From: an uncultured Actinomycetes bacterium
GTDB taxonomy: Bacteria; Actinomycetota; UBA4738; HRBIN12
DNA length: 64,000 nt
Reading direction: 5' to 3'
Assembly: GCA_963704885.1 (NCBI GenBank)
Contig: CAVPIB010000001.1
Coordinates: 160,001-224,000 of the forward strand
The notes beneath the pieces are model-generated. The model had not been told where the DNA came from. It did no database searches and was given only the letters and a program-made list of their open reading frames with translations. A program made the translations under genes and the position numbers. Within the stretch, counting starts at the first letter, position 1. Each line of letters opens with the position of its first letter. Positions 8,197 to 59,066 of the stretch are shown piece after piece.

Positions 8197-8219
8197 GCGC
8201 GACGGGTCGTTGAACCACC

Positions 8220-8249: not shown

Positions 8250-8564
8250 GTTGCCGGATGGTGGAGGAACGGCGGACGGGCGGGGCCGTCGGATCCCTAC
8301 CCGTCCGCACGATCAGCCAGACCGCTATGAACCAGACCTATAGGCCCAGACCGCCAGGCCGATGAAAGAGGACCCGGCGGGGCGGGGTGGGTCTGGCGGC
8401 ACCCCGCCACCGCCAAGTCTCGCTATAGGAATCGGCGATATGACCGACCCCGCCGCAGTGACCGAACGGCCCCAGTTTCCCGGCCAAAGGGCGGATACGG
8501 GTCGCGTGGTCCGGGGACACCGGTCGGTCCGTCCGACGGCATCCGGCTGTTACGCTCGCGCCTC

Positions 8565-32238: not shown

Positions 32239-33743
32239 TCGCCTCCCTTGCGGAACAGTCGCCATCGGCGCTTGGGCTGGCCCTCTTCCTCAAGGGTGGC
32301 CCCGATCTCGACGTCGGACGGCGGCGTCACCCGCGTTCGAACGGGACGGCCCTGGGAGGTAGAGGGCGCGGAACGCGCTTTGAGCTCCGCGTCATCGTCG
32401 ATGACCACCACCCGGCGTTCAGGAAGGTGTTCGGGTGGAGCTTGGTCGGAGGTTGCTGGACGGCGAGAGGCTGGGGGCGGCGGAACGGGTTCGTCCGGAT
32501 CCTCCCAAAGGTCGTCCTCGTCGACTCCGGCCATGGGAACAAGGGGTGCAGGCTCGCTTGGAGGGGAGGGCTCAGGGGCTGGCTCAGGGGCTGGCTCAGG
32601 GGCTGGCTCAGGGCCTGGCTCAGGGGCTGGCTCAGGGGCTGGTTCCGGTTCCGGTTCCGGTTCCGGTTCCGGCTCGGGGGCCGGCTCCGGCTCAGGCGTC
32701 GGCTCCGCCAGGAGCTGGTGGACGGTCGGAGTGGGAAGGTCCTCCAGTTCGGCCTCGTCGACGGCATCCTGTGTGACGGCGTCATCCACTGCCGGGATCA
32801 CCATCGCGGGCATGTCATCGAAGATAGGCATCGGCTCGTCGGGCGGAGGCCGAAGAGCAACCTCCGTAGCCAGTTGACGGTACGCGTCCGCCCCTTTCGA
32901 CCGCGGATCGTAGACAGTGATGGGTTGACCGAACCCAGGCGCCTCCGACAATCGCACCGTCCTTGGGATGATGACGTCATACACAAGCTCTCCGAAGAAG
33001 CGCTGAACCTCTTCGACAACCTGCTCCGAAAGCTTCGTCCGGGGATCGAACATCGTCATCACGATCCCCGACAGTCGCAGCTCAGGGTTGATGTTCTGCT
33101 GCACCAGACTGACGTTCCTGAGCAGTTGCCCCAGCCCCTCCAGGGCGTAGTACTCGCACTGGATAGGCACGATCAACTCCTCTGCGGCTGTGAGGGCGTT
33201 GACGGTCAGCAGTCCGAGCGAGGGTGGGCAGTCGAGTAGGACGAAGTCATACCGGCCTTCCCGTATCGGGTCGAGAGCCTTCTTGAGGCGGGTCTCCCGC
33301 GAGAACTGGCTGACCAGCTCGATCTCGGCCCCGGCTAGGTCGATGGTGGACGGCACGGCATGGAGTCCCTCGACCGGCGTAGGGACGATCGCGTCTTCGA
33401 TCGGGGATTCGATCACGATGACGTGGTAGACGGTGGTTTCTCTCGCCTCGTGGCGGATCCCCATCCCGGTGGAGGCGTTTCCCTGAGGATCCAGATCGAC
33501 AACCAGGACCCTATAGCCGAACTCTGCGAGCGCCGCCCCCAAGCTCACCGCCGTGGTCGATTTGCCGACGCCGCCCTTCTGGTTGGCGATCGCGATGATC
33601 CTGGCCGAACCGGGGGTCTCCGGCGGCTTGGGAGCCGACTTCCTCGCCGGCGTTCGCCGTCCAGCGGCACGGGCCGAGCTGCCCCTCGAGGCAGAGCGTG
33701 CCGATGCGGTCCGCGAGGCGGCCTTCGCGCCTGAGGTGGTCAC
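32235..33743 (-). CDS. parA: ParA/Soj ATPase with long disordered C-terminal extension
   Basis: [37 protein letters not shown]; GTG 33743 overlaps the rsmG stop. Confidence 0.93.
32569..32696 (-). repeat. 12-bp and 6-bp tandem repeats encoding (EPAP)n/(EP)n in the ParA tail
   Basis: (GGCTCAGGGGCT)x~6 then (GGTTCC)x5 on the + strand. Confidence 0.9.
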
Positions 33744-34357
33744 TGCCGGCTCATGATAGCGAGCGGCCCTGACCTTGCAAGCGTCGAGGCCACCAGGTTG
33801 ATCTCGAGGTCGCTTGGCAGCTGCGATCGATCGAATCCCCGGCCGGCGAAGTAGACCAGCCGTCCGTGAGGGACGAGCAGCGGTTCTGCGGCTCGCCAAG
33901 AGGCCGCAGGGCCGGCGAACGCTCGGGCGAGACACAGGTCAGCGCGATCACTGAGGTTCTGCGCCCTCCCTGCGTATATGCGCGCATTGGGCAACCCGAG
34001 CAGTTCGACGGCGAGCTCTAAGAAGGCCACTCGTGGTCGGCGTGGCTCCACCAAGGTGACCTCCAGCCAGGGGCAGGCGATCGCCACCACCAGGCCTGGG
34101 AGCCCGGCGCCGGAGCCTAGGTCGTACCCGGTGCGCTCCTGCCCACTCACGACCGCAGCCGCACGCAGGCAGTCCCAGATGTGGCGTTCTCTCAGTCGCG
34201 ATACGTCGGCGGCTGCTACGAGCCCCGAGGGGACCGCGCGCTCCCTCAGAAGGGTCTCGAACCGCTCGAGCTGGCCGACTTGGTCATGACTCAACGTGAC
34301 ACCCGGGACCGGGAATGATGGTTCGGGAGTGGAACCCTCATGTTTCACGTGAAACAC
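33740..34357 (-). CDS. rsmG: 16S rRNA m7G methyltransferase; start uncertain
   Basis: [20 protein letters not shown]; conserved locus. Confidence 0.9.
34341..34356. promoter_or_regulatory. parS: parS centromere site
   Basis: Perfect consensus palindrome TGTTTCACGTGAAACA. Confidence 0.95.
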
Positions 34358-34404
34358 GCCTCCGTGTGGCGCCGCGCAGCGCCAGAGACATCCCGAAGGG
34401 AGGA

Positions 34405-35058
34405 CTAGCGGCGTCGGATGACGACCGCCCGGTCGGGCTCTTCGCCTCGACTCGAGCTCTCCACGCCGTCGATCCGCGAGACGGCATCATGCACGATCTT
34501 ACGTTCGAACGGATTCATCGGCTCCAGGGTCTCCTCAGCGCCGGACTTCAGAACGCGCGCGGCGACGTCGGCGGCGTGCTCCTCCAGACGCGTCTCACGG
34601 CGCTTGCGGTAGTCCTCAACGTCCACGATCACCCGCACCCGCTCATCGAGATGCCGGCCGACGACCATCCGGGTGAGCTCCTGGATGGCGTCCAGGGTCT
34701 GCCCGTGGCGGCCGATCAATAGGGCCATGTCGTCCTCATCCTCCCCGACGATGTCCACGTACATATGATCACCGTGCAGGTTCGGCTCGGCGACGGCGTC
34801 GACGCCCATGTGTCCCAGCAGCTCCTCAAGGAAGTCAGCCGCGCTGTCGGCCTGCTCCTCGAGGTCTTCTGGATCGACGTCGGGGGAGACCATCCTCACG
34901 CGTACGACCGCCTCGTGCGAGCCTATCCCAAGCACGCCACCGCGGGGCTCCTGCAGCACTTCGATACGGGCCTCCTGCTCTGAGATCCCGAGTTCTTGGA
35001 GGGCCGCTTCGACGGCCTCCTCGATGCTAGGCGCCCGTTTCTCCGTCTCCCTTGCCAC
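34405..35058 (-). CDS. jag: Jag/KhpB (EloR) RNA-binding protein (Jag_N, KH, R3H)
   Basis: SIEEAVEAAL, LIGRHGQTLDAIQ, PMNPFERKIVH. Confidence 0.92.
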   Translation of the reverse strand: MARETEKRAPSIEEAVEAALQELGISEQEARIEVLQEPRGGVLGIGSHEAVVRVRMVSPDVDPEDLEEQADSAADFLEELLGHMGVDAVAEPNLHGDHMYVDIVGEDEDDMALLIGRHGQTLDAIQELTRMVVGRHLDERVRVIVDVEDYRKRRETRLEEHAADVAARVLKSGAEETLEPMNPFERKIVHDAVSRIDGVESSSRGEEPDRAVVIRRR

Positions 35059-36184
35059 CTTCGCCTTCACCCCCCGGGGGTCGTTTCGGAGCGGGCCGCC
35101 CGCCGCCCTTAGAGCCACCTGTGTTCGGACGTCGCCGCTTCGGCTGTGGGCCCTTCGCGCCCCCGCCGGTGGGCTTGCTGCCACTCCCGCCGGAGGGCTT
35201 GCGGCCGCCACCACTCGCCGGGCGCTTGCCCTCCTGTATACGACGACTCTCCTCCGCCCGTTCTTGCATGCGGGACATGAGCCCCTTCTTGGCGGGCCCG
35301 CCGGCGTTCTTGGCGCGCTGTTCGGCCATCCTTCGCTCCATGGCCTCAGGTCCGATATGGCCCGCCTTCAGCAATGCATACTGCTGTCCGATCTGCCAGA
35401 AGTTCGAGACGGTCCAATACAAGGTGAGTCCTGCAGGGAAGGCGAATCCGAAGACCCCGAACATGATCGGCATGATCTTCATGATCGCCTGCTGCTGACC
35501 CGAGGCCGCGCCGGGAGGACTAGCCCTCTGCATCTGGCGCTGCTGGAAGAACGTGGTGCCGATCATGATCACGAGAAGCGCGAAGTAGGGGATCTTGTCG
35601 GCCGTACCCGAGCCGCAGTCGATGACGTGGTCGCTCGGCTGTCCGTCTGAGTCCGGGACGGTCACCTGCTTCCCGGCCTGAGACGCCGAGCACTGCAGGT
35701 TCAGCAAGAGGAAGTTCATGTTCGTGTCGGTGGTCACGTCCGCGTACAGCTGCGAGTCAACAGGCAGGTGGTTGTTCACGAATTCGGGCACGTTCGGATT
35801 CGGCTCGGCAGGGTCGTAGGCGGCATTCGGCACTGGGGCGCGGAGCACGGAGTACATGGCGATCAGGATGGGGAACTGCAGCAGGAGCGGGAGGCAGCCC
35901 CCGAGGGGATTGACGCCCGCCTCCTTGTAGAGCTTCATCGTCTCTTCTTGGGCCTTCTGCTTGTTGCCCTTGTTCTTCTTCTGGATCTCCTTGACCTTCG
36001 GCTGGATCGACTGCATGGCGCCCATCGACTTGATCTGCTTGATGCCTAACGGCAACAGGATCACGCGGATAAGGATCGTGAGCACGATGATGGAGAGGCC
36101 GTAGTTGCCGACGAAGTCGTAGATCTCCGCCAGCACCCAGCCCAGGCTGTTCAACAGAGCCTGGAAGACCTCCAGCGCGACCAT
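35027..36184 (-). CDS. yidC: membrane protein insertase YidC
   Basis: YGLSIIVLTILIR, NPLGGCLPLLLQFP, PAGLTLYW. Confidence 0.95.
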   Translation of the reverse strand: MVALEVFQALLNSLGWVLAEIYDFVGNYGLSIIVLTILIRVILLPLGIKQIKSMGAMQSIQPKVKEIQKKNKGNKQKAQEETMKLYKEAGVNPLGGCLPLLLQFPILIAMYSVLRAPVPNAAYDPAEPNPNVPEFVNNHLPVDSQLYADVTTDTNMNFLLLNLQCSASQAGKQVTVPDSDGQPSDHVIDCGSGTADKIPYFALLVIMIGTTFFQQRQMQRASPPGAASGQQQAIMKIMPIMFGVFGFAFPAGLTLYWTVSNFWQIGQQYALLKAGHIGPEAMERRMAEQRAKNAGGPAKKGLMSRMQERAEESRRIQEGKRPASGGGRKPSGGSGSKPTGGGAKGPQPKRRRPNTGGSKGGGRPAPKRPPGGEGEGGKGDGETGA

Positions 36185-36492
36185 CAGCTGGCTCGCTCAG
36201 TCACACTGGGTATGATGGCGTCATACTCGTCCGAGGAGGGCGCCGTCCCAGGAACCTGCTCGATCCCGCCTGCCCCGAATGGGTTGCAGCGCAGGATCCT
36301 CCACAGAGCCAGTCCGGTTCCCTTCAGGGCGCCATGTGCACGGATCGCCTCCTCCGCGTAATGCGAGCAGGTCGGATAGAACCGACATTGGCCCCCCAGC
36401 CAGCCCGAGAGAGTGGCCCGATACAACCTGATCAGGCCCGTGACCATGGCTCGCGCCGGGGCGCCGGCCGTCCTGAGGGCGCGGCGCTTCAT
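36184..36492 (-). CDS. yidD: membrane protein insertion efficiency factor
   Basis: CRFYPTCSHY, RILRCNPF. Confidence 0.95.
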   Translation of the reverse strand: MKRRALRTAGAPARAMVTGLIRLYRATLSGWLGGQCRFYPTCSHYAEEAIRAHGALKGTGLALWRILRCNPFGAGGIEQVPGTAPSSDEYDAIIPSVTERAS

Positions 36493-37206: not shown

Positions 37207-38625
37207 ATGGCGATAGCGTTCTCTGAGCGCGAGGCACACGACACCTGGGCTCACGTCCTGGAACGCGCCCGCGCCGAGCTTCCCGAGACGACGGTCGTCA
37301 TGTGGTTCGCCGATGTGAGCCCCGTCTCGCTCGACGGCGGCGTGCTGGCTCTACATGTGCCCAGTGACATGGTCCGGGAACGTCTGCAACACAATCATCT
37401 TGGGCTCATCCACGACGCAGTCGTCGATGCTGTCGGCGCGGACGTCGAGATCCGCCTAGACGTGGACGAGGCCCTGCGAGGCCCGGTCGATGACATCGTG
37501 TCGATCCCCGACCTCGACGAGACTCCTGCCCCCGCGATGGAGCCCCCGCCGGAGGCGACCGCCGCCCAGCGCGCCGCCGGCGCCCCCGGATTGCCGTTCC
37601 CCAACTACACGTTCGAGGCCTTCGTGCCCGGACCGTCCAACCGGTTCGCGCATGCGGCCGCCATGGCAGTTGCCGAGGCTCCTCCCTCCAAGGCCTACAA
37701 CCCGCTGTTCATCTACGGCGGCGTGGGTCTGGGCAAGACCCACCTGCTGATCGCGGTCGGGCATCACATGTACCGACTGAAGCCACGGCTGCGCGTCAAG
37801 TACGTGACCTCCGAGCAGTTCGTGACCGAGTTCATCAAGGCGGTCCGCGAGCGCCAAGGCGACGGCTTCCGCCAGAAGTACCGTGAGGTCGACGTGCTGC
37901 TCGTGGACGACATCCAGTTCCTGGCCAAACGCGAGGAGACGCAGACCGAGTTCTTCCACACGTTCAACCATCTACACACGGCCGGCCGGCAGATCGTGAT
38001 CGCGTCCGACCGGCCACCGCACGAGCTCTCGAGCATGGAGGAGCGCCTGACCAGCAGGTTCCGATGGGGACTCTGCGTGGACGTGCAACCGCCGGACCTG
38101 GAAACGCGGATCGCCATCCTGCAGCTGAAGGCCGAGCGCGAGGCGATCGCCGTTCCCCCAGACGTCGTCGAGTTCGTCGCTTCCAAATTCGATCAGAGCG
38201 TCCGTGAGCTGGAGGGCGCCCTGGTGAGGGTGGTGGCGTGGTCCGAGCTGACAGCGCAGGCGATCGACGTGACCTTGGCCGAGCGTGCGCTGCAGGATCT
38301 GATCCCGCAGACCGAGCACGACATCCCTCCGCCATTGATCTTGGAGGAGACCGCGAACTACTTCACGCTCGCGACAGGCGACCTGATGTCGAAGAGCCGG
38401 TCGCGGCCGCTCACCCAGGCGCGTCACATCGCCATGTACCTGGTTCGCGAGTGCACGGGGCTCTCGCTCGTGAAGATCGGCGAGATCTTCGGGGGGCGGG
38501 ATCACACCACGGTCCTGCACGGCATCAACAAGGTCGAGGGGGAGATGCGCGCCCGGGATACTACGTTCCGCCAGGTCCAGGACCTGACGCGCATCATCCG
38601 CGGTCGCGCTCGGGGGTCGGCATGA
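37207..38625 (+). CDS. dnaA: chromosomal replication initiator DnaA
   Basis: [40 protein letters not shown]. Confidence 0.98.
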
Positions 38626-38812
38626 GGGTGTGGAAAACGCGGGGACCGGATGTTGGCTGTGGTGGATGCAACCCGATCGCAGGGCATATGGATGATGGTT
38701 CTCCCCAGCATGTCCACATGTCGGAGGGCTCCTCTACGCTGGGGGAACGCCTACGTTGTGCACCTTTCCACAGCACCTACTACTACCGTACTGAGAGAAA
38801 GACTAAGAGCAA
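38626..38812. other. oriC: oriC (dnaA-dnaN intergenic) with DnaA boxes and DnaA-trios
   Basis: TGTGGAAAA 38629, ATGTCCACA 38710, CTTTCCACA 38764, then GCAC spacer and CTACTACTAC trios 38777-38786, then an A-rich tract. Confidence 0.85.
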
Positions 38813-38827
38813 CAGGGGGTGGCCACG

Positions 38828-39931
38828 GTGAAGTTCCGGTGTGACCGAGACGCGCTCTCGGAGGCTCTACAGACCGTTCAGCGAGGTGTGTCGTCTCGCC
38901 CCGGCATCCCGGCGTTGACCGGGGTGCTGCTCGAGGCGACGGACGGCGGTGAGCTGACCATGATCACCACCGACCTCGAGGTGTCCGCGCGGTTGTCGAT
39001 CGCCGTGCAAGTGACCGAACCGGGGATCGCCCTGATCCCGGCGCGTCTCTTCGGCGACACGGTGAAGAGCTTGTCGAACGCGCCGGTCGACGTGGAGACC
39101 GATCAGAGCCAGGCGCGCATCCGTTGTGCGGCCTATGAAGGCACGTTGAGGCTGCTGCCGGCCGAGGACTTCCCGGGGCTGCAGGAGCCGAGCGGGACCC
39201 GGTTGACCGCGGAGGCCGGTGCGTTCGCGGAGGCCGTGAACCAGGTGGGGCGAGGGGCCTCGCGCGACGAAGCGCGCCCGGTTCTCACGGGCGTGCTGCT
39301 CGAGGTCAGTCGCGAGGGCGTGGTCATGGTGGCGACCGACTCGTACCGGCTGGCGGTGCGCGACCTTGTGGCCACGGCAGATGGCGAGGCGCGGGCGATC
39401 GTCCCCGAACGCGCGATGTCGGAGGCCGGACGCGCGGCTGCGGCCGACGAGAAGGGCTCCGTGGAGGTCTTCGTGGACGAGAGTCAGGTCTCGTTCAAGA
39501 TCGGTGGGCTCACGCTCACATCTCGATTGATCGAAGGTGAGTTCCCTAACTTCCGGCAGCTGCTGCCGGAGTCGACCGAGAGTCGGCTGACGATCTCTCG
39601 CCAGCAACTGCTCGATGCGGTCAGACGGGTAGGCCTACTGGCGCGTGACACCACACCGGTCCGCCTGGAGTTCAATGCGCTCGGAGTGAAGCTCTCCAGC
39701 TCGTCACCCGACCTCGGGCAAGCGGTCGAGACGGTGGAGGCGCGCTATGAGGGCGAGGACCTCACGGTCGCGTTCAACCCGCAGTACCTGGCAGACGGGC
39801 TCACGGCCGCCAACGGCGAGACCGTTCGCCTGGACGTTCGCGACGGGCTCAAGCCCGGTGTGGTCCACGGGGAGGGCGACGAGTTCACCTACCTGGTGAT
39901 GCCCGTCCGTCTGCCCGCGGCGGTGAGCTAG
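38828..39931 (+). CDS. dnaN: DNA polymerase III beta sliding clamp
   Basis: TTDLE, RPVLTGV, ATDSYRLA, LIEGEFPN, LVMPVR. Confidence 0.97.
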   Translation: MKFRCDRDALSEALQTVQRGVSSRPGIPALTGVLLEATDGGELTMITTDLEVSARLSIAVQVTEPGIALIPARLFGDTVKSLSNAPVDVETDQSQARIRCAAYEGTLRLLPAEDFPGLQEPSGTRLTAEAGAFAEAVNQVGRGASRDEARPVLTGVLLEVSREGVVMVATDSYRLAVRDLVATADGEARAIVPERAMSEAGRAAAADEKGSVEVFVDESQVSFKIGGLTLTSRLIEGEFPNFRQLLPESTESRLTISRQQLLDAVRRVGLLARDTTPVRLEFNALGVKLSSSSPDLGQAVETVEARYEGEDLTVAFNPQYLADGLTAANGETVRLDVRDGLKPGVVHGEGDEFTYLVMPVRLPAAVS

Positions 39932-39959
39932 GAAAGGCTGGGGCGCAAGGGTTCCCCTC

Positions 39960-41054
39960 ATGCGCCTGGCCTGGGTCGAGCTGCGCGACTTCCGCAACCA
40001 CGCTTACACGCGCATAGAGCCGGTACCCGATGGGCTGATCGTTGCCGTGGGTCCGAACGGCGAGGGCAAGACCAACCTGCTCGAGGGGATGTGCTACCTG
40101 TTCACGCTAGCGTCGCCGCGTGTCTCGGCGTCCGGGCCGCTCGTCCGCGGAGGTGCCGACGCCGCCTACGTGCGTGGCGAGGTCCAGACGAACGACGGCC
40201 TCGTCCTGGTGGAAGTGGAAGTGCCCACGCGTGGCGTGAGCCGCGTGAAGGTGAACCGTTCGTCCGTGCGTCGCAGGCGCGATCTCAGGCGTCAGGTTCG
40301 CGCGGTGTTCTTCGGGCCCGACGATCTGGACATGGTGCGCGGCGAACCGTCGCATCGGCGACGGTTCCTCGACGAGGCCGTCGTGGCTCTCTGGCCGCTG
40401 AAGGAGTCGCTGCTGTCTGGCTACGACCGGGCGCTACGTCAGCGCAACCGCCTGCTGAGGGAGTGGGATGGCCCTGGTGTCCCTGCGGGGATGGAGGCGT
40501 GGGACGCCGAGTTGATCCAGGCGGGCGCGGCCCTGATCCGCGCCCGGGCCGAGGCCGTCGACCTACTGACATCGCCCGCGTCCGAGGAGTTCGAGGCACT
40601 CGCCGACTACGGTTTGGCCTGCACGTACTCGCCGAACGTGCGGGGTGCCGAGGACCTGGAGGACATGTTCCGTACGCGGATCGACGAACGGCGCCACGAC
40701 GAGTTGGCGAGGCGAACCTCGCTGGTAGGGCCGCATCGCGATGATCTGGATCTGGCCGTCAGGGATCTGGGCGCGCGGGCGTTCGCCTCTCACGGCGAAG
40801 CTTGGGCGGCGGCGCTCTGCCTCCGCCTCGGTCTGGCGTCCGCGGTGGAGCTAGAGATCGGTGAGCCGCCGATCCTGCTGGTGGACGACCCGTTCTCGGC
40901 GCTCGACCCGAGGCGCCGCGATCAGATCGGCGAACGGCTCGCGGCCCGCGGAGGTCAGGTGGTCATCTCTGTCGCCGATGAGGCCGATGTGCCGGCGGCC
41001 GCTCACGCCACGTGGGACGTCGATGCTGGGACCGTCACGCCGAGGGCGGCCTGA
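39960..41054 (+). CDS. recF: DNA replication/repair protein RecF
   Basis: DFRN, GPNGEGKTNLLE, GPHRDDL, LVDDPFSALD. Confidence 0.95.
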   Translation: MRLAWVELRDFRNHAYTRIEPVPDGLIVAVGPNGEGKTNLLEGMCYLFTLASPRVSASGPLVRGGADAAYVRGEVQTNDGLVLVEVEVPTRGVSRVKVNRSSVRRRRDLRRQVRAVFFGPDDLDMVRGEPSHRRRFLDEAVVALWPLKESLLSGYDRALRQRNRLLREWDGPGVPAGMEAWDAELIQAGAALIRARAEAVDLLTSPASEEFEALADYGLACTYSPNVRGAEDLEDMFRTRIDERRHDELARRTSLVGPHRDDLDLAVRDLGARAFASHGEAWAAALCLRLGLASAVELEIGEPPILLVDDPFSALDPRRRDQIGERLAARGGQVVISVADEADVPAAAHATWDVDAGTVTPRAA

Positions 41055-41395
41055 TGCCGCACTCCAAGGGTTGGCGAACCCGGCGCGACCCACGCTCCAG
41101 CGACGCCGTCCAGATCGGCGACATAGTCGACGGCCTGTTCGAAGAGGAGATCTTCTCTCGGGGCATGCCGATCGCTCAGCTCGCCTCTGGTTGGGTCCAG
41201 ATCGTGGGAGAACGACTGGCGGGCGAGACGGCGCCGATGAGTTTGGAGGCCGGGGTTCTTACGGTCGCGGCGACCAACGGGCCGTGGGGGGCTCAGGCCC
41301 GGTTCTTGCATGAGCAGATCCGGCACAAGGCCAACCAGGCGCTCGGCGGTGAGACCGTTTCGTCGGTCCGTGTGGTCGTGCGAAACAGCAGGTAG
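41054..41395 (+). CDS. DUF721/DciA family protein
   Basis: WVQIVGE motif; position between recF and gyrB. Confidence 0.8.
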   Translation: MPHSKGWRTRRDPRSSDAVQIGDIVDGLFEEEIFSRGMPIAQLASGWVQIVGERLAGETAPMSLEAGVLTVAATNGPWGAQARFLHEQIRHKANQALGGETVSSVRVVVRNSR

Positions 41396-41447
41396 ATGGC
41401 CTGAAACAGGTCGCGGAACCGCGCCGAACGTCGGCCCTGATTGGTAG

Positions 41448-43484
<2,037 letters not shown>

Positions 43485-43540
43485 GTCGAGCGGGCCGAGA
43501 GCCGTCGGGGAGCGTAGGCCAAGAAGCGTAGGAAGGACCC

Positions 43541-45988
43541 ATGTCACAGAACCTGTTCGCCGGCCGCATCGAGGACATCCAACTCGAAGACGAGATCCAG
43601 AGCTCGTACCTGGACTACGCGATGTCGGTCATCGTGGGCCGGGCGCTTCCCGACGTCCGCGACGGGCTCAAGCCGGTCCACAAGCGGATCCTGTGGGCCA
43701 TGCTCGAGGCTGGGTACCGCCCAGACCGCCCACATCGCAAGTCTGCCGCGGTGATCGGCGACGTGTTGAAGAAGTACCACCCGCACGGCGACCAATCCGT
43801 GTACGACGCCCTTGTCCGCATGGCGCAAGATTGGTCGCTGCGCTACCCGCTGGTCGACGGCCACGGTAACTTCGGTTCGGTCGACGGTGATCCGGCCGCT
43901 GCATATAGATACACGGAAGCGCGTCTCGCGCCCATGGCGATGGAGATGCTGCGCGACATCGAGGCCGAAACCGTCGACTTCGTCCCGAACTTCGACGGAT
44001 ACGAACAGCAGCCGGTCGTCCTGCCCAGCAGGTTCCCGAACCTGTTGGTGAACGGCTCGGGCGGGATCGCCGTCGGTATGGCCACGAACATCCCCCCGCA
44101 CAACCTCGGCGAGACGATCGACGCGGTCGTGCACTTCCTGGACAACCCCGACGCGACCCCCGGCGACCTCATGAAGTTCATCAAGGGGCCCGACTTCCCG
44201 ACCGGCGCCACGATCATGGGGCGCCAGGGCATCAAGGACATCTACGAGACCGGTCGCGGCTCGATCAAGGTCCGGGCCGTGACGCAGGTGGAGGAAGGCG
44301 CGAACGGCCGCTCGAAGATCGTCGTGACCGAGCTGCCCTACCAGGTCAACAAGGCGCGCCTCGCGGAGAAGATCGCCGACCTCGTGAAACTCGGCCGGCT
44401 GAAGGACATCGCCGACCTCAAGGACGAGTCCAACCGCGAGGGCATGCGGTTGGTCATCGAGTGCAAGCGCGCCGCGAACCCGCAGGTCCTGTTGAACCAG
44501 CTCTACAAGACGACCCAGCTACAGGAATCGTTCGGCGCCATCATGCTCGCGCTCGTCGATGGCGTACCGCGCACGCTGAACCTGGCCGAGATGGTCGGCT
44601 ACTACGTCGATCACCAGGTGGACGTCGTCACCCGGCGCACCCAGTACCTGCTGCGCAAGGCCGAGGATCGCGACCACATCGTCCTGGGGCTGCTGATCGC
44701 GCTCGATCATCTCGACGAGGTCATCGCCATCATCCGGGCCTCGCAGGACGCCGAGGCTGCGCGGAAGCGTCTGATGACGAAGTTCAAGCTGTCCGAGATA
44801 CAGGCGAACCACATCCTGGACATGCCGCTGCGGCGCCTCACCAAGCTCGCGCGGACCGAGCTCGAGGATGAGCACAAGAAGCTGCTCGAGGACATCGATT
44901 ACTTCAACAGCCTGCTGAAGGATCCGAAGCTCCTGCGCGGCGTCATCAAGGAAGAGATCCTCGAGATCCGCAAGAAGCACGCCGATGGGCGGCGCACGAA
45001 GATCATGGCCGACGAAGGCGACCTCGACATCGAGGACCTGATCGCCGAAGAGGACGTGATCATCACGGTCAGCCGCGCCGGCTACGTGAAGCGGCTGCCG
45101 GTCGACGCGTTCAAGCGGCAACTCCGCGGCGGCAAAGGAGTGCGCGGCCAGAACCTCAAGGAAGAGGACGTCGTCAAGCACGTGTTCACGACGACCACGC
45201 ATCACTGGATGCTGTTCTTCACCACGAAGGGGCGGGTGTACCGCTTGAAGGCCCACAGCATCCCGGAATCGGGCCGGACGGCGCGGGGCCTCTACGCCGC
45301 GAACCTGCCCGGGGTCGCGCTCGACGGCGACGAGCGCATCAGCGCGGTGATCGACCTCAAGGAGTACTCGGAAGGCGAGTACCTGCTCTTCGCCACCCGC
45401 AACGGCATCGTGAAGAAGACCAAGCTGCCCGAGTACGACTCGCCGCGCACCGGTCTCATCGCGATCAACCTCCGCCAGGATGACGAGCTGATCGACGTGA
45501 AGCTCACGGACGGCAAGGACGAGATCTTCCTCGTCTCGCGCAAGGGGCAGGCGATCCGATTCAAGGAGTCGCTCGCCCGCCCGATGGGTCGCGGGACGGG
45601 TGGCGTCATCGGGATGCGGCTGGGTGAAGACGACCGGGTGATCGTGGTCGGCCTGGCATCCGACGGCGAGGAGATGATCAGCGTGACCGAGCAGGGCTAC
45701 GGCAAGCGCTCGAAGCTCGCCGACTATCCGCCCAAAGGGCGCGGTGGCAAGGGCGTGATCGGCCACCAGCTCACCAAGAAGACAGGGCTGCTCGCGGGCG
45801 CGTACATCGGCTCGAAAGACATCGACATGTTCGTGATCTCGTCGAGCGGACAGGTGGTTCGCGTTCCGGCCGGCGACATCCGCCGGGTCGGTCGAGCAAG
45901 CCAGGGCGTGCGAACGATGCGGGTCGAGGAGGGTGCCACGGTCGTTGCGCTGGCGCCGGTGATCATCCAGATGGACGAAGAGGAGTAG
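43541..45988 (+). CDS. gyrA: DNA gyrase subunit A
   Basis: RALPDVRDGLKP, HPHGD, AAAYRYTEAR, GyrA-box-like QLRGGKG, beta-pinwheel CTD. Confidence 0.97.
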   Translation: MSQNLFAGRIEDIQLEDEIQSSYLDYAMSVIVGRALPDVRDGLKPVHKRILWAMLEAGYRPDRPHRKSAAVIGDVLKKYHPHGDQSVYDALVRMAQDWSLRYPLVDGHGNFGSVDGDPAAAYRYTEARLAPMAMEMLRDIEAETVDFVPNFDGYEQQPVVLPSRFPNLLVNGSGGIAVGMATNIPPHNLGETIDAVVHFLDNPDATPGDLMKFIKGPDFPTGATIMGRQGIKDIYETGRGSIKVRAVTQVEEGANGRSKIVVTELPYQVNKARLAEKIADLVKLGRLKDIADLKDESNREGMRLVIECKRAANPQVLLNQLYKTTQLQESFGAIMLALVDGVPRTLNLAEMVGYYVDHQVDVVTRRTQYLLRKAEDRDHIVLGLLIALDHLDEVIAIIRASQDAEAARKRLMTKFKLSEIQANHILDMPLRRLTKLARTELEDEHKKLLEDIDYFNSLLKDPKLLRGVIKEEILEIRKKHADGRRTKIMADEGDLDIEDLIAEEDVIITVSRAGYVKRLPVDAFKRQLRGGKGVRGQNLKEEDVVKHVFTTTTHHWMLFFTTKGRVYRLKAHSIPESGRTARGLYAANLPGVALDGDERISAVIDLKEYSEGEYLLFATRNGIVKKTKLPEYDSPRTGLIAINLRQDDELIDVKLTDGKDEIFLVSRKGQAIRFKESLARPMGRGTGGVIGMRLGEDDRVIVVGLASDGEEMISVTEQGYGKRSKLADYPPKGRGGKGVIGHQLTKKTGLLAGAYIGSKDIDMFVISSSGQVVRVPAGDIRRVGRASQGVRTMRVEEGATVVALAPVIIQMDEEE

Positions 45989-47858: not shown

Positions 47859-47933
47859 GGGCCTGTAGCTCAGCTCGGTTAGAGCGCTTCCCTGATAAGG
47901 AAGAGGTCGATGGTTCAAGTCCATCCAGGCCCA
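47859..47933 (+). tRNA. tRNA-Ile(GAT); CCA not encoded
   Basis: GGGCCTG/CAGGCCC acceptor stem, anticodon loop CTGATAA, GGTTCAAGTCC T-arm. Confidence 0.97.
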
Positions 47934-47956
47934 CTCCCGGAAGGAGGGCTTCTCAC

Positions 47957-49028: not shown

Positions 49029-50134
49029 CCAAGGTCACCGACATCGAGCTCCGCCTGATCGGGCTGCCGCTGAAGAGCCCGTTCCGAACCAGCTTCGGCG
49101 TGGAGACCGAGAAGGTGTGCGTCTTGGCCCGGATCGCGACGGAGGAGTCTGAGGGTTGGGGTGAATGTGTGGCCGGGCCAGACCCCGGCTTCTCCGAAGA
49201 GTGGAACGAGAGCGCCTGGTTGGTGATCCGAGACTTCCTGGCACCCGCGCTCTTCGCGGCTGGAGACGTGACCATCGACGACGTGGATCGGGTGCTGGGG
49301 AGTGTTCGCGGGAACCCCATGGCCAAGGCGACGGTGATCGACGCGTTCCTGGACGCGGAGCTGAGGGCCCAGGGGCTTTCCCTCGCTGAGCATCTGGGCG
49401 CCGACAGGGATCGCGTGCCTTGCGGTGTGTCCATAGGGATCGCCGACACCACCGTCGAGCTGCTCGAGCGGGTGGAGAGGTACCTGGGCGACGGCTATCA
49501 GCGGATCAAGCTGAAGATCGAACCCGGCCGGGACGTCGAGCGCGTCGGAGCGGTTCGAGCCGCCCACCCGGACATCCTGCTCTCGGTCGACGCGAATGCC
49601 GCGTACACGCTCGAGGACGTCGGCGTCTTCAAGGCGCTCGACGAGTTCGGCCTGTTGATGATCGAGCAGCCGCTGCATCAGGACGACCTGTTCCAGCACG
49701 CCGCACTTCAATCGCAGATCCGAAGCGACATCTGTCTTGACGAATCGATCCGAACTGCGGCCGACGCCTCGGCGGCGATCGAGCTGGGGGCGTGCCGCAT
49801 CGTGAACATCAAACAGGGACGAGTCGGTGGGGTCCCGGAGGCCCGGCGGATCCACGACGTGGCGCGCGCCTTGGGCGTTCCCGTGTGGTGCGGGGGAATG
49901 CTCGAGACCGGGATCGGACGGGCCACGAACCTCGCGCTGGCCTCGATGCCGGGCTTCAACCTCCCCGGCGACACGAGCGCATCCAACCGGTACTTCACCG
50001 ACGACATCACCGAGCCGTTCGTGGTGGATCCCGACGGGACCATGGCCGTTCCCACGGGGCCGGGGATCGGCGTGACCCCACGCCTCGATCGCTTGGAAGC
50101 CTGCACGATCCGCACCGAGACGCTGAGGCGATAG
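49025..50134 (+). CDS. menC: o-succinylbenzoate synthase / N-acylamino acid racemase (enolase superfamily)
   Basis: PFRTSFG, KLKI, DAN, EQP, DES, NIKQGRVGG, WCGGMLETG, PGDTSAS. Confidence 0.88.
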   Translation: MTKVTDIELRLIGLPLKSPFRTSFGVETEKVCVLARIATEESEGWGECVAGPDPGFSEEWNESAWLVIRDFLAPALFAAGDVTIDDVDRVLGSVRGNPMAKATVIDAFLDAELRAQGLSLAEHLGADRDRVPCGVSIGIADTTVELLERVERYLGDGYQRIKLKIEPGRDVERVGAVRAAHPDILLSVDANAAYTLEDVGVFKALDEFGLLMIEQPLHQDDLFQHAALQSQIRSDICLDESIRTAADASAAIELGACRIVNIKQGRVGGVPEARRIHDVARALGVPVWCGGMLETGIGRATNLALASMPGFNLPGDTSASNRYFTDDITEPFVVDPDGTMAVPTGPGIGVTPRLDRLEACTIRTETLRR

Positions 50135-50227
50135 CTCGCGCTTCCTTCTCCGCGCTGCTTGAGCCGGCCCCCAACACGCGCGACGATAGCCGGACGCCGC
50201 GAGCTCGTTGCTGCGGCGTCTCAAACG

Positions 50228-50788
50228 ATGAAGAAACGTGTGGTCCGCGCGGAGGAGTTCGAGGTCGTCGACGAGAGCGGCGGCGTTCGACTGCGCATCG
50301 GCCTGGGCAACGACGACTCGCCCTTCTTCTCCATGCTCGATCCTGCCGGTCAGGTTCGCGCCCGCTTCGGTCTGTCCTCCGACGGGTCGGCGGGCCTCGC
50401 GATCGGCGACGACAACGGCAAGGTCCGCGCGACGCTTGGACTTTCGTCGGATGGATCGGCCAGCCTGGCGTTCGGCGACAAGAACGGACGGATCCGCGCC
50501 AAGTTCGGTCTGGCGCCGGAGGCCTCGCCCACGTTGGGCATGCAGGTCCGAAGCGGCGAACTGCATCAGGTCTACAGCCTGGCCGAACAGGGATCACCGA
50601 CGATGGGCCTGTACGACAAGGCCGGAAAGGTCCGGGTGAGGCTGGGCCTGGCCGCCGAAGGCTCGCCGGTGCTCCGGCTACTCGATCACGAGGGCGAGCT
50701 GCGGGCCGTGGTCGGCCTGGCCGGTGACGGCAGCCCGTTCATCCAGTTCATGGATGAACAGAAGGCGCCCACCTGGACGATGCGATGA
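50228..50788 (+). CDS. hypothetical beta-repeat protein (7 x 23 aa)
   Basis: Repeat unit D-x-x-G-x-V-R-x-x-x-G-L-x-x-[DE]-G-S; stop overlaps the next ATG. Confidence 0.75.
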   Translation: MKKRVVRAEEFEVVDESGGVRLRIGLGNDDSPFFSMLDPAGQVRARFGLSSDGSAGLAIGDDNGKVRATLGLSSDGSASLAFGDKNGRIRAKFGLAPEASPTLGMQVRSGELHQVYSLAEQGSPTMGLYDKAGKVRVRLGLAAEGSPVLRLLDHEGELRAVVGLAGDGSPFIQFMDEQKAPTWTMR

Positions 50789-51294
50789 CGGGGTGGTGGG
50801 CCGCGGCGTTCGTGGCCCAGTGGCTCCTGGTCCTCGTGCTTGCAGTGGTGATCGTTGCGCTTGCCCGTCAGGTGGGAACACTCCATCTGCGTCTCGGGCC
50901 TCGTGGCGCCCTGGAGGTTGACTCCGAGGGCCCCGCGTTGGGCGAGGCGCCGCCCCCCACACCGGGGATCGACGCCTCAGGCGCGCGCGTGCTGGTCGGC
51001 GGTCCCGGCCCGGGGCGCCTGATCCTGTTCTCGTCTCCTTCGTGTCCGATCTGTCAGGACGTGGCGCCTGGGATCCCCGCCGCCGCCGCCGCCGTGCGGA
51101 TGGCCCCGATGGTGCTGCACGACCCCGAGCTGGAACACGTCTACGGAGTGCCGGGGACCCCGTTCCTCCTGGTGATGGACGAGTTCGGCGTGGTCCGCGC
51201 GAAGGGGACCGTGAACAACCTCGAACAGGTCGAGGGTCTGGTGGATACGGCGCTTCGCCGCATCGAGGAGGTGCCGGAGCGACGGGCAAGCTGA
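50785..51294 (+). CDS. mauD: MauD-like membrane-anchored thioredoxin-fold protein
   Basis: ALARQVGTLHLRLGPRGAL, GP..G..PP, FSSPSCPIC, GTPF, AKGTVNNLEQVEGL. Confidence 0.85.
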   Translation: MTGWWAAAFVAQWLLVLVLAVVIVALARQVGTLHLRLGPRGALEVDSEGPALGEAPPPTPGIDASGARVLVGGPGPGRLILFSSPSCPICQDVAPGIPAAAAAVRMAPMVLHDPELEHVYGVPGTPFLLVMDEFGVVRAKGTVNNLEQVEGLVDTALRRIEEVPERRAS

Positions 51295-51818
51295 TCGCGA
51301 TCGAGCGGGCGGAACGGACCCTCGCGCGGCGAACCAGCCGGCGAGGGTTCCTTGGGAAACTGGGCCGCGGCGTGGTCGCCTTGGCCGGCGGCGGCGTGGT
51401 CGCCACGGCCCTCGCGCCGGGACGGGCCTCGGCGCACCACATCTGCGGGCATCTGTACACGACCGAGTCCTGCCCGCATCCGTTCGGCAAGCTCGCGAGA
51501 ACAGACAACTTCGGTTACCCGGTCCATCCGGTATATGGCTATCCCGTGGACGATGAGGGCGCGGTCTACTCCGATCCAGCGGCGCAGGTCAGGAGCAAGG
51601 TCTGTCAGCAGATCGTGCCGTCGCTCTATCACTTCGTGAAGAACCCTCGCTACGGCGGAGGCTGGACGCGGTGCTGCAACGGCCGTCTGCGCCACATCCA
51701 GGACTGCTGCTCGACCTCTCGGATCCGGATCAACGGCGACTATTCGGTGACCGGCTACTGCCCGACGCGGTTGCGCGTCTTCTGCATCACGTATCGCGAG
51801 TTAGAGGGCACGTGCTAG
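51291..51818 (+). CDS. Tat-exported Cys-rich protein resembling the amine dehydrogenase light chain (MauA-like); non-canonical start
   Basis: SRRGFL Tat motif, ASA cleavage site, 10 Cys, WTRCC...DCC...YC...FC pattern. Confidence 0.75.
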   Translation: MIAIERAERTLARRTSRRGFLGKLGRGVVALAGGGVVATALAPGRASAHHICGHLYTTESCPHPFGKLARTDNFGYPVHPVYGYPVDDEGAVYSDPAAQVRSKVCQQIVPSLYHFVKNPRYGGGWTRCCNGRLRHIQDCCSTSRIRINGDYSVTGYCPTRLRVFCITYRELEGTC

Positions 51819-53029
51819 ACGGTTCGTTGGTGGTGGCCCTGGTCGTCGCCTCTGCGGTCGCCGGCTGGTCGGCCCTCCACGGACCCTGAGGTCTGTCGAT
51901 GGTGGAGACCATCACCCCCGTGGTCCACGGGGGACGCGCGCGGTGGCTGAGCACGTTGGTGCTGCATACGCTCGGGGCCGCTGTCACGGCGGGCGTGTTC
52001 GGCGCGGCGCTCGGGTGGGTCGGTGGACTCCTGGGCGCGCCCTGGGGGCGACCCGGTCTGGTAGTCCTCGCGGCTTTCGCCGCCGCATATGGGCTCGCCG
52101 AGCTCTCACGACGCGGCCGGCTCCCCATCCCGCAGCTCCGCCGACAGGTTCCTGATTGGTGGCGAACCTTCTTCGGCCGACAGGTGGCCGCCGTCCTTTA
52201 TGGCGCGGGCCTTGGGATCGGGTTCTTCACGTACCTCGCAGAGGGAACCCTCGTCGTCGTGACGTTCGCGGCGCTCGCCAGTGGACGTCCGGAGGTGGGC
52301 GCGCTGTTGATGGCGCCGTTCGGACTGGTGCGAGGGCTCTCGGCCGCCGTAGCCTGGCGATCGGATACGCCCGAACGGAGCCGGGCGCTGGTCGACCGGC
52401 TGGTATCGGCGCCCGAGCGCCGCAGGAAGGTAGCGAACGCACTCGCTCTGGCGGCGATCGTGGTCACGGGCGCCGTGGCCGCGATCCAGACGCCGCGCGG
52501 CGGCTGGCAGGTCTTGGGGGCAGCGGCGCTGGCCGCGGTCTTCTCGTGGAGCGCGGCATCGAAGCTGCTCCCCACCGCGCGATGGCGTCGGGCGCTGGCT
52601 GCCCACCGGCTCCCGGGCGTCGTGGAGCGGATCGCCTCGTGGTCTGTGCCGGTCGGTGAGGCGTTGGTGCCCGTGCTGGTTGTTCTCGGGTATCCGCGCG
52701 TGGGCGCTGCCTGGGCGCTGGTGCTCATGGGTATGTTCTCGATCGAGCTGGTCCGCGTTCGCGGCCTGGTGGGTGTGCGCGTGCCGTGTGGGTGCTTCGG
52801 GGGACGGGGGACCGTCGATGTCCGGCACGCGTTGTTCCGCAACGCCGGGCTCGCCGGGCTCGCGGTGTTCGTCCTCGTTCTCGGGGTCGACCGCGCCGCC
52901 TCGTGGTGGCCGGAGGTTCCAGGCAGAGCGGATCTGGTGCCGCTCCTCGTTGCGGCCAGCGCCGTCTCGGCGGCTATGCTGACGGCCTGGCGGGCGTCTT
53001 CTTGGCTGGCCAAAGGCAGGGGGGCATGA
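51812..53029 (+). CDS. MauF-MauE fusion membrane protein, predicted selenoprotein (UGA 51887-51889 = Sec26)
   Basis: GTG 51812 overlaps the upstream stop; 25 hydrophobic codons, then in-frame TGA continuing GLSMVETITP; PQLRRQVP and LYGAGLG.GF.TY (MauF-like); VPCGCFG...RN (MauE). Confidence 0.75.
51915..51933 (+). promoter_or_regulatory. candidate bacterial SECIS hairpin
   Basis: CCCCCGTG-GTC-CACGGGGG perfect 8-bp stem; loop begins GU, G is 34 nt after the UGA; extra GGTCT/AGACC stem 51890-51910. Confidence 0.55.
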
Positions 53030-53658
53030 CGGGGCGGATCCTGCGCGGGATCGCACCGTTCGCTTTGGTGGCCGCAACGGTCGTGGGTGTGGCGGTCGTG
53101 GCGATGGCTGCCGGACCGGTCGTTCCGGGGCCGCGGGCGCAGGTCGACGATCCGAACGACACGCGAGGTCCGCTCGACATCAGGCGCGTCTGGTTCGAAG
53201 ACCCAGCGGACGCTCCGCCGAACTGGACCATCGTCACGTACGGCCCCTGGCACCCGAAGCGGCTCTACGACAGGGGTTTCACGTTCGTCTTCCTGGATAC
53301 GACCGGCACGGACAGAGCCGAGTACTACGTGCTTATCCGCTCGGTGGGGCGTGCGTTGGCGGGTTCGCTCTGGCGTGACCCCAAACGCGGCGGCGACATC
53401 AAACTCCTGCCGATCGGTGTGACGCGATCCTCGAACGCGAGCCTCACCCTGGAGATCCCGCTGAGGAAGCTCGAGGTAGGTCCGTTCCGGACCTACTACG
53501 GCTGGTACGCCGTGACTACGTTCACGGGTCGGGTGTGCCGCGCCACGTGCATCGACCGGACGCCGGATACCGGAGCGTTCGATCAGCCGATCGGTATCCC
53601 GTCGCCCACGCCCACCGGGAGCCCGACGGCGTCGGTCGGCAGCGATGAACGAACGTGA
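53026..53658 (+). CDS. secreted hypothetical protein
   Basis: ATGA-coupled start, signal peptide, DDPNDTRGPLDI, CRATC.DRTPD, PSPT tail. Confidence 0.7.
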   Translation: MTGRILRGIAPFALVAATVVGVAVVAMAAGPVVPGPRAQVDDPNDTRGPLDIRRVWFEDPADAPPNWTIVTYGPWHPKRLYDRGFTFVFLDTTGTDRAEYYVLIRSVGRALAGSLWRDPKRGGDIKLLPIGVTRSSNASLTLEIPLRKLEVGPFRTYYGWYAVTTFTGRVCRATCIDRTPDTGAFDQPIGIPSPTPTGSPTASVGSDERT

Positions 53659-53688
53659 TCCCGGCGGGGGAAGTCGTCCAGGCCTTCG

Positions 53689-55188
53689 TCAGGAAGGTCG
53701 AGAGAGGGCGGTGCCATCCAGCTGCGGATCGACCAACGGCGTTGGTTTCTCCACGACGTGGAAGCGCCGTTCGGGGCTGATCAGGCTGTATACGACCGAC
53801 GAGGCCTCCAACACCGTGAAGATCGGGATCATGGCAGCTTGAAGGACGAAGTAGCCGGGGTGCCGCAGCGCGCGCAAGCCCTCCTGCATCGATAGGCTGA
53901 CCCACAGCCCAAGCAGGTAGTTCGTCACGAACACGGCGAAGATCGCGTCTCCGACGATCGCCAGGCCGCGGGGCACCGCCACGCCGCTGAAGATGTGGAG
54001 GAGCGAGTAGGCGAACCCGGTCCACCCCACGGTCCAGAGGAACATCGCGAACCAGAGCGAGCGACGATACTTGACGGGCACGGGCGTCTTCCTGGCCGCC
54101 CACCACATACCGGTGAACCACCGCCGCCGCTGGTGGATGAAGTCGTTGAGGTTGGCGGGCGACTGCTCTATCACGGTTCCCTCTACCCACCGGAAACGGT
54201 TGCCCTCGCCCATCTGTCGAAGTGCCCAGGTCGTGTCCTCGGTCGTGCAAGCTTCGGGCGGGAAATCGAAACCCACCTGCCGTTCGACGCTCGAGCGGAC
54301 GAGCAGGAAGGAGCCGTGCATCCCGAACAGGATCTGGTGCATCCGGTACTGGAGATGGAATCTGCCCAGATCGTCCCCCACGCGGATGGAGTCGGCCATG
54401 GAGAAGACCTTGTTGGACGCCAGATTCCGGTGATACGTGATGAGTCCCTGCCCGATGCGATGCTTGCCGGACCGCTCCTCTTCGGTTACGGCTTCGCGGA
54501 TACCCACGATCAACTCCTCGGTGACGTGGGACTCCTCGTCCAGGTGCAGGATCCAGCCGTCGTCGGGGATCGGAGAGACAGAGATGGCGTAGTGGAGCGC
54601 GCGAGCCTTGTGCGTGGCCCCGTTGCTCGTTGCGAAGTCATCCGGCACGACGATCGTGTGCACGGCTTCGTGATCGGGCAGGCCTTCTACCGGCACGTCG
54701 CTCACGACCTCGATCTGGAAGGGGAAGCACGGCCGCGATCTCATCGAGTCCAGAACCGAATGGGTCGTGGCGATCACCGTCTCAGGCTGGTCGCCGCGAG
54801 TCACGATCCGGAAGACGATTGGGAACCGCATGGTCGTGGCCCGAGATCCGGCGCGTGTCTCTTCGGTGGCCTTCGTGTGACGCCTGAATAGCAGCCATCC
54901 GGAAACGTCCGCGATCGCCCACGGGAGCATGAGGGACCACGTCACTGCGCTCCAAGCGATCACGTGATCGAAGAGGTTGTTGGCGGGATGTCCTCCCTGC
55001 GGCCAGACGACACCCTTCACGTAGCGGATCGCGAGGAAGATGACCGCCATCAGCGCGATCACCCCGAGACGGAAGATCAAGTTGCGCGACGCCAAAGAGC
55101 GGCTCGCGATCGGTTCGGGCGCTGATCGATCCGGGCCGGGGGCTTCGGGCGAAGGTTGGGCGAGGGTCTGGGTTCGAGTCGTCTGCAT
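53689..55188 (-). CDS. GT2 glycosyltransferase, egghead/BRE-3 (beta-1,4-mannosyltransferase)-like
   Basis: RIVTRG, HKARALHYA, LHLDEES, IGQGLITY, ADSIRVGDD, HGSF, TED, QRRRW; multiple TMs. Confidence 0.82.
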   Translation of the reverse strand: MQTTRTQTLAQPSPEAPGPDRSAPEPIASRSLASRNLIFRLGVIALMAVIFLAIRYVKGVVWPQGGHPANNLFDHVIAWSAVTWSLMLPWAIADVSGWLLFRRHTKATEETRAGSRATTMRFPIVFRIVTRGDQPETVIATTHSVLDSMRSRPCFPFQIEVVSDVPVEGLPDHEAVHTIVVPDDFATSNGATHKARALHYAISVSPIPDDGWILHLDEESHVTEELIVGIREAVTEEERSGKHRIGQGLITYHRNLASNKVFSMADSIRVGDDLGRFHLQYRMHQILFGMHGSFLLVRSSVERQVGFDFPPEACTTEDTTWALRQMGEGNRFRWVEGTVIEQSPANLNDFIHQRRRWFTGMWWAARKTPVPVKYRRSLWFAMFLWTVGWTGFAYSLLHIFSGVAVPRGLAIVGDAIFAVFVTNYLLGLWVSLSMQEGLRALRHPGYFVLQAAMIPIFTVLEASSVVYSLISPERRFHVVEKPTPLVDPQLDGTALSRPS

Positions 55189-58966: not shown

Positions 58967-59039
58967 GGGGACGTAGCTCAGCTGGTAGAGCACCTGCTTT
59001 GCAAGCAGGGGGTCGGCGGTTCGAGTCCGCTCGTCTCCA
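58967..59039 (+). tRNA. tRNA-Ala(TGC); CCA not encoded
   Basis: GGGGACG/CGTCTCC acceptor with G3:U70, anticodon loop TTTGCAA, GGTTCGAGTCC. Confidence 0.97.
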
Positions 59040-59066
59040 CGCCGTCTCCACGCCGACTCTCCACGC
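59032..59066 (+). repeat. tandem triplication of the tRNA-Ala 3' end (CGTCTCCACGC)
   Basis: Copies at 59032, 59043 and 59054 (third has a 2-nt insertion). Confidence 0.8.

Follow-up and report, generated by a model that had tools for sequence, protein, structure and literature searches.

What do proteins of the methylamine dehydrogenase (Mau) maturation pathway do in a bacterium in which the large subunit of that enzyme is not found? The question is raised by a five-gene operon, g1 to g5, at positions 50228-53658 (+ strand) of the window, by which we mean the whole 64,000-nucleotide stretch of DNA analysed. The window comes from an uncultured Actinomycetes bacterium (GenBank assembly GCA_963704885.1, contig CAVPIB010000001.1, positions 160,001 to 224,000) and, with a G+C content of 67%, covers the part of an actinobacterial chromosome that surrounds the replication origin. 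We propose, at a probability of about 0.6, that the operon is a dedicated selenocysteine (Sec)-dependent disulfide-maturation module for g3, a diverged MauA-like exported protein (Table 1). MauD, MauE and MauF are needed for the MauA small subunit of methylamine dehydrogenase, and MauG completes its tryptophan tryptophylquinone (TTQ) cofactor.

The frame of g4 opens with a GTG at 51812 and joins the open reading frame (ORF) from ATG 51899 through a single TGA. Residues 25-176 of the read-through product align with an annotated MauF (BLASTP, E 2e-11, 34% over 159 aa), and the alignment begins exactly at P-U/C-G, with U26 on the Cys of WSPCG. That Cys is the only one in the annotated MauF examined. 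A tblastn search of 7.3 Gb of plasmids with the MauF part returned a sole match, an annotated mauF. Further along the same chain, residues 237-356 match the MauE family PF07291 (67.4 bits, 2e-18; cut-off 27), and the CGC of this domain is aligned with the CGC of annotated MauE. Among NCBIfam models, g4 gave a chance-level row only, and no selenoprotein model matched.

Is the TGA inside the MauF part read as Sec? Comparison of sequences indicates that it almost certainly is. Conservation was counted over 80 related loci, and every gene missing from the counts belongs to a locus cut by a contig end. A TGA lies at the projected codon in 73 of the 74 loci that contain g4, with conserved protein on both sides, and the 74th has the same string one base off. 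The surrounding motif is (F/Y/H/W)-G-P-TGA-G-L-S-M-V-E-T-I, and the stop at this position is TGA in 72/72 sequences, never TAA or TAG. A sister clade has TGC or TGT there in 3/3 loci, within the motif T-W-S-P-C-G-(F/L)-S-M-I-E-T. Additionally, the genome encodes a tRNA-Sec (70.9 bits, anticodon TCA) as well as selA (493 bits), selB (321 bits) and selD (373 bits), and each of these scores exceeds its cut-off. Among the genomes tested, selA occurs in 2/2 of the TGA type versus 0/3 of the Cys type, the latter being 98-99% complete. We also observed two 372.7-bit matches to selD on small contigs (G000 C14:8433-9356 and C20:5731-6654), which represent either a real duplication or redundant assembly.

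Synonymous variation is suppressed across two hairpins predicted downstream of the UGA, the first a candidate core of a selenocysteine insertion sequence (SECIS) and the second possibly part of it. The third positions of Ser+3, Thr+7 and Ile+8 are invariant in 72 sequences, that of Pro+10 is fixed in 71/72 and that of Gly+14 in 72/72, and the Gly codons at -8, -2, +1 and +15 vary freely across the same set. The upper pairs of the second hairpin are not kept by all relatives. Cys-type loci also fold small hairpins after the Cys codon, so the presence of a hairpin does not by itself discriminate between the two types, whereas the frozen synonymous sites do. An Rfam scan of 50000-54000 gave no match at E <= 1.

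The gene g2 encodes the thioredoxin of the operon. It aligns with annotated MauD (BLASTP, E 3e-22, 31% over 172 aa), with the membrane anchor aligned and CPIC placed on CPMC, and it matches the MauD model TIGR02661 at 1.5e-21 and 76.8 bits, where the curated cut-off of 188.6 is not reached.

The candidate client, g3, is a predicted substrate of twin-arginine translocation (Tat). Its signal consists of TSRRGFLG, a hydrophobic stretch and then RASA/RAEA, an AxA-type cleavage site, all conserved in alignments, and its score against TIGR01409 (15.1 bits) falls just short of the cut-off of 16.7. The mature domain of ~128 residues follows the twin-arginine leader. Ten Cys, Trp125 and Tyr156 in GYC are invariant, and the final residue is Cys. 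Both clades share W125, D138, the CC pairs and GYC157 without exception, and W125 is the one Trp invariant in the mature domain (29 sequences). At the mature N-terminus no sequence departs from C52-G53-H54 and C61-P62, and most have H50 and H63. No Pfam family matched g3, NCBIfam gave sub-threshold rows in the leader only, and a sequence search of the PDB with the g3 profile gave 0 matches at E up to 10.

The family is widespread. Counted at E <= 0.001, it comprises 620 database proteins; members were found in 143 species genomes, and of the 80 with titles listed almost all belong to uncultured Actinomycetota. The genomes are metagenome assemblies. Within a sample of the phylum, 48/401 genomes spread over several families carry it (40/393 when eight genomes flagged as unpublished are left out). 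A search of a representative library with the g3 profile gave 221 proteins at the same threshold, and all 14 that were read, of the 150 library matches listed, are of the same family, fragments, or frameshifted or fused gene calls. The frame of g3 contains no ATG, GTG or TTG from 51042 to the twin-arginine motif, and across the 80 loci its opening codon is CTG in 45 (43 as CTGA), TTG in 7 and ATG in 15. From this pattern, CTG seems to be a conserved non-canonical start codon that is reached by termination-reinitiation.

Do the five genes belong together? All five are found in the same order and on the same strand in 58/58 loci with room for them, a conservation of order far beyond chance. Both g2 and g3 are present in all 80 loci (median identity 66% and 71%), g1 in 78 (80%, the best conserved gene of the operon), g4 in 74 (53%) and g5 in 61 (42%, the least conserved). 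An earlier note on this DNA, made from the letters alone, had described a chain of a repeat protein, a MauD-like CxxC thioredoxin, a Tat substrate, a MauF(Sec)-MauE fusion and a secreted protein, and had singled out gene order in relatives as a test of its reading. That order is conserved, all four overlaps are present in the DNA, and the descriptions agree with our results, that of g3 as a predicted Tat substrate and that of g5 in its hydrophobic N-terminus, a signal or anchor. A scan for promoters and terminators across the operon gave nothing exceeding shuffled expectation.

The earlier note had also stated that MauB, MauG and any cupredoxin or cytochrome gene are missing from the operon and window. 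We searched the genome (3.0 Mb, 97% complete; all but 16,000 bases) with the Pfam models for MauB (PF06433), MauA (PF02975) and CCP/MauG (PF03150) and found no match to any of the three, so the absence of MauB and MauG extends to the whole of the genome searched; PF06433 and PF02975 both match a real mau plasmid used as positive control. No cupredoxin or cytochrome c family was found among the window ORFs scanned. Across the phylum sample MauB is absent from all 48 cluster-bearing genomes, and its one marginal match (22 bits) is in a genome without the cluster. CCP/MauG occurs in 8/401 genomes, of which only two (G014 and G388) are among the 48, and there it lies 340-400 kb from the cluster on the same contig. 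Thus, a canonical mauB/mauG pair accompanying the cluster, which the earlier note had named as evidence that would overturn its reading, is not what these genomes contain.

Comparison with a reference cluster (mauF-B-E-D-A-J on the Indioceanicola profundi plasmid NZ_CP030128.1) clarifies what is shared and what is new. In both, mauF, mauE and mauD families adjoin a Tat-exported Cys-rich small protein encoded after mauD; MauF is aligned from its single Cys on, MauD has CPxC and MauE is recognized by Pfam. In contrast to the mau cluster, the operon has no mauB, mauG, mauJ or amicyanin gene, fuses MauF to MauE with Sec in place of the MauF Cys, has a MauD-like protein that is shorter than MauD and under the curated cut-off, and adds g1 and g5, neither of a known family. 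The hosts also differ, an actinobacterium here as against a proteobacterial methylotroph.

We suggest the following mode of working. The protein g3 would be exported via Tat by its MauA-type leader, and its ten cysteines would then be oxidised and sorted into disulfides outside the membrane by a relay. This relay would comprise the anchored MauD-like thioredoxin, with its CPIC, and the membrane protein g4, which would recycle the thioredoxin and which puts the single redox residue of MauF (Sec for Cys) and the CGC of MauE on one chain. Both the pairing of g3, as client, with g2 and g4 and the direction in which electrons flow are inferred; electron transfer may be selenium-based, and the client a cofactor protein or metalloprotein, as the earlier note proposed. 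Since the system works without the MauB propeller subunit and the di-heme MauG, its product would not be methylamine dehydrogenase. The earlier note had further supposed that the machinery serves a different client. This stands in so far as the system lacks MauB and MauG, but the client is probably no unrelated protein, and g3 is more plausibly a MauA-like protein that has diverged far and whose MauB and MauG were either lost or never there.

The kinship with MauA draws on leader homology, position and structure, which together make it probable that g3 is a far-diverged relative of the TTQ light chain. The leaders of g3 and MauA are homologous by profile comparison (hhalign probability 97%, E 7.7e-11, 37 columns), and TIGR02659 reaches 14.5 bits on g3, in the leader part only, against a cut-off of 196.85. 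The gene follows a mauD-like gene, as mauA does in mauFBEDA. An AlphaFold model of g3 was built from 29 sequences of both clades and has a mean predicted local distance difference test (pLDDT) score of 70, with 62-95 per ten-residue block in the mature domain. When this model was compared by VIA-align with 48,161 representative chains, 2agl_D, the small subunit of aromatic amine dehydrogenase and a TTQ light chain, came first (Z 2.9, root-mean-square deviation (r.m.s.d.) 3.6, 72 residues), and the methylamine dehydrogenase light chain 3c75_M stood at rank 12 (Z 2.4); among Foldseek's top 909 chains 2agy_H, the same subunit as 2agl_D, came first (Z 3.1, r.m.s.d. 3.8, 73 residues, g3 model 47-173), although a Z of ~3 is in the range that the tool calls common and so proves nothing alone. 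Both g3 and the TTQ small subunits (MauA/AauA; PF02975) are small, Cys-rich and beta-rich and share a homologous extended twin-arginine leader; these subunits are also the best, though weak, structural match over the whole g3 mature domain. The TTQ light chain has 12 Cys in 6 disulfides, whereas g3 has 10 invariant Cys, a C-terminal Cys and no Trp-Trp pair, and its mature domain has no detectable sequence homology to these subunits.

Several results weigh against our proposal. The mature g3 domain gives no match to PF02975, and hhalign against the MauA profile assigns probabilities of 0.4% for the whole domain and 0.8% for the C-terminal halves. By eye, the W-x3-C ... DCC ... (W/Y)C of g3 resembles the MauA invariants, but hhalign prefers another register at its 0.8%, so this motif alignment is unsupported by sequence statistics and serves as a lead only. 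Confidence in the structural model is moderate, one built on a shallower alignment (pLDDT 47) was left unused, and Foldseek of the model against the PDB gave a best E of 0.44, with none at E <= 0.001. The protein g2, being below the TIGR02661 cut-off, is MauD-like and no equivalog. The fold energy after the UGA is ordinary (z -0.95), and the invariance of the hairpin stems means that they offer no covariation. The sister clade lacks g1 and g5, so some members of the system do without them, and because the operon lies in the syntenic dnaA/gyrA region, part of its order conservation may be inherited synteny. Additionally, disulfide handling by MauD, MauE and MauF was itself deduced from mutant phenotypes.

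Other explanations of the locus bear either on whether the genes and codons are what they seem or on what g3 does. An ordinary stop at the TGA, with g4 starting at ATG 51899 and the 25 upstream codons forming a separate leader peptide or remaining untranslated, would account for the ATG three codons past the TGA, for the unremarkable fold energy and for public gene calls, as the best 120 database proteins listed for g4 (named MauE/DoxX family or hypothetical) begin past the TGA and cover at most 93% of the read-through protein. We consider this very improbable: the peptide is conserved on both sides of a codon that is always TGA, Cys takes the same place in the sister clade and in canonical MauF, where it is the sole Cys, the genome has the Sec machinery, whose occurrence follows the TGA form, and a protein initiated at the ATG would have neither the first transmembrane helix nor the motif. 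Adjacency of the five genes merely through inherited synteny near the replication origin, with no joint working, is extremely unlikely. The operon does lie within the dnaA-gyrBA region, ~4 kb past the gyrA gene, and an unrelated upstream enolase-family gene is likewise kept in 73/80 loci. Against this stand the four stop/start overlaps, the adjacency of the same families in real mau clusters and the recurrence of the MauD/Tat protein/MauF-MauE core in a distant clade with other surroundings and different fusions.

As to g3, it could be the catalytic small subunit of a new quinoprotein dehydrogenase made without MauG, with a cofactor formed from Trp125 and Tyr156 or a neighbouring Cys, and with g1 or g5 replacing MauB. 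We regard this as unlikely, even though structure comparison places a TTQ light chain first, the leader shares ancestry with that of MauA, the residues invariant across both clades include W125, D138, the CC pairs and GYC157, the by-eye motif recalls MauA, and g1 is very strongly constrained. With one invariant Trp in its mature domain, g3 cannot carry TTQ itself. The register of the motif alignment is not the one hhalign prefers, and that at negligible probability; no gene of the operon encodes an oxidase or haem protein that could form the cofactor; g1 carries no signal peptide and by hhalign is not related to MauB; and neither g1 nor g5 occurs in the sister clade. An elaborated form, which we hold improbable as a whole, would make g3 a MauG-independent descendant of the TTQ light chain in which a cross-link between Trp125 and either Tyr156 or a vicinal Cys gives a new protein-derived quinone. 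There, the Sec-dependent MauD/E/F relay would mature g3 outside the membrane of a monoderm, and g1, g5 or a C-terminal domain of the sister-clade MauF would replace the MauB propeller. It is likewise improbable that g3 is an exported metal-binding protein (copper, zinc or iron-sulfur) that uses a CGH ... CP(H)P motif and some of its Cys, with the Mau-like proteins holding its thiols in the right state. The invariant C52-G53-H54 and C61-P62 and the mostly kept H50 and H63 are consistent with such a role, and export by Tat typically concerns proteins that have first folded or acquired a cofactor. However, H50 and H63 are lost in one clade (GFCGH; CPAP or CPGP), the operon has no metal chaperone or transporter, and no known metal-binding family or fold was matched.

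The sister clade gives a second view of the system to which, in our proposal, the Sec-dependent module belongs. Its core is smaller: MauE fused to MauD, the Tat protein in one or two copies, and a long Cys-type MauF, with no g1 or g5. This MauF (7736-9166 in locus L139 and ~5750-7160 in L138) carries a ~280-residue C-terminal domain without a known family, which is conserved between the two loci and shows no detected similarity to g1, g5 or MauB; it may stand in for g1 or g5. A comparison of g1 with this domain by hhalign gave 0.1%, with no relation detected, and g5 showed no similarity to it. Arrangement varies among the loci: L138 (G236:C11) has a tandem pair of Tat Cys-rich proteins at 7164-8398 on the - strand, one copy of which carries an extra run of G-x-P-V-D-like repeats, and the MauF gene behind the pair appears split across two frames. 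In L137/L110 (G158:C5), a single open frame uninterrupted by a stop runs through MauE, MauD and the Tat protein, either a triple fusion or overlapping genes with internal starts.

The outer genes of the operon belong to no family that we could name. The repeats of g1 start at residues 18, 41, 64, 87, 110, 133 and 156, an exact 23-residue period, with a self-identity of 36% at offset 23. The protein has no signal peptide, no Pfam family and a sub-threshold NCBIfam row only, and g5 matched no Pfam or NCBIfam family. In the Atlas, g1 matched only Actinomycetota hypothetical proteins and g5 Actinomycetota hypothetical proteins; these searches led to unnamed actinobacterial clusters, with one weak PF09985 lead in 20% of one cluster. 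As a candidate relative of MauB, g1 was rejected (profile hhalign probability 0.4%, no relation detected). A complex prediction for g1 with full-length g3 scored 0.00 in both runs, which were made without controls and are uninformative either way.

Table 1. Features of the five-gene operon (window coordinates).
Feature	Position	Strand	Description
g1	50228..50788	+	ORF, 186 aa, seven 23-residue repeats
Overlap ATGA	50785	+	g1 stop to g2 start
g2	50785..51294	+	MauD-like membrane-anchored thioredoxin, CPIC motif, hydrophobic N-terminus
Overlap CTGA	51291	+	g2 stop TGA with the CTG opening the g3 frame
g3	51291..51818	+	Predicted twin-arginine exported protein, 175 aa; frame opens with CTG inside CTGA
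Overlap GTGCTAG	51812	+	g4 GTG with g3 stop TAG
g4	51812..53029	+	MauF-MauE fusion, 405 aa, read through one TGA, almost certainly as selenocysteine (U26)
Sec codon TGA (almost certain)	51887-51889	+	Motif GP-U-GLSMVETI
First hairpin, candidate SECIS core	51898..51913	+	GAUGGU-GGAG-ACCAUC, 8 nt after the UGA; predicted fold
Second hairpin, possibly SECIS part	51915..51933	+	CCCCCGUG-GUC-CACGGGGG; predicted fold
Overlap ATGA	53026	+	g4 stop to g5 start
g5	53026..53658	+	ORF, 210 aa, N-terminal hydrophobic signal or anchor

Elsewhere in the window, the origin region (37207-45985 and 31348-36492) contains dnaA, dnaN, recF, a DciA-family gene, gyrB and gyrA on the + strand, with parA, parB, yidC and yidD on the - strand upstream of the dnaA-gyrA genes. 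A nickel superoxide dismutase gene (PF09055; 7353-8193) has as its neighbour a divergent gene for an S26 peptidase, the partner usually found with it for SodN maturation. A lone tRNA-Ile(GAT) (47859-47934) and tRNA-Ala(TGC) (58967-59040), 11 kb apart, flank the operon region, and ORF-based scans gave no rRNA family between them.

How does a Sec-bearing MauF relate to known selenoproteins? A 2026 review of prokaryotic selenoproteins lists DsbA-like, TlpA-like and rhodanese/DsbD fusion-like TsoB families (PMC13188914). The g4 protein resembles the thiol-disulfide selenoproteins treated there in having Sec for a redox Cys, Cys forms elsewhere and a host with Sec machinery, and differs in that its Sec lies in the first membrane helix of the MauF domain. 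The terms 'Mau', 'methylamine' and 'DoxX' are absent from the main texts of that review and of deep-Sep (PMC12013277); the supplements of these papers, or BSepDB (PMC13326102), may list the family. Our literature search found no paper linking MauF or MauE with selenocysteine. We therefore rate the system as a Mau-type maturation module with a Sec-containing MauF, serving a new family of Cys-rich exported proteins.

On this evidence, the defining residue of MauF is almost certainly Sec in a whole lineage, a form missed by all of the 120 public gene calls listed. A Sec-containing MauF would add a membrane-embedded member to the bacterial selenoproteome, and it points to the single Cys/Sec as the residue with which MauF works; the part that MauF plays in methylamine dehydrogenase biogenesis has, to our knowledge, never been defined. 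MauD, MauE and MauF may form a portable module, able to serve a client without MauB or MauG, and their work on a small Cys-rich protein would thus be separate from cofactor completion. The g3 family, widespread in soil Actinomycetota, highly conserved, and with no Pfam family or solved structure recognizable by sequence, is a concrete candidate, either for a new redox protein outside the cytoplasm or for a new protein-derived cofactor.

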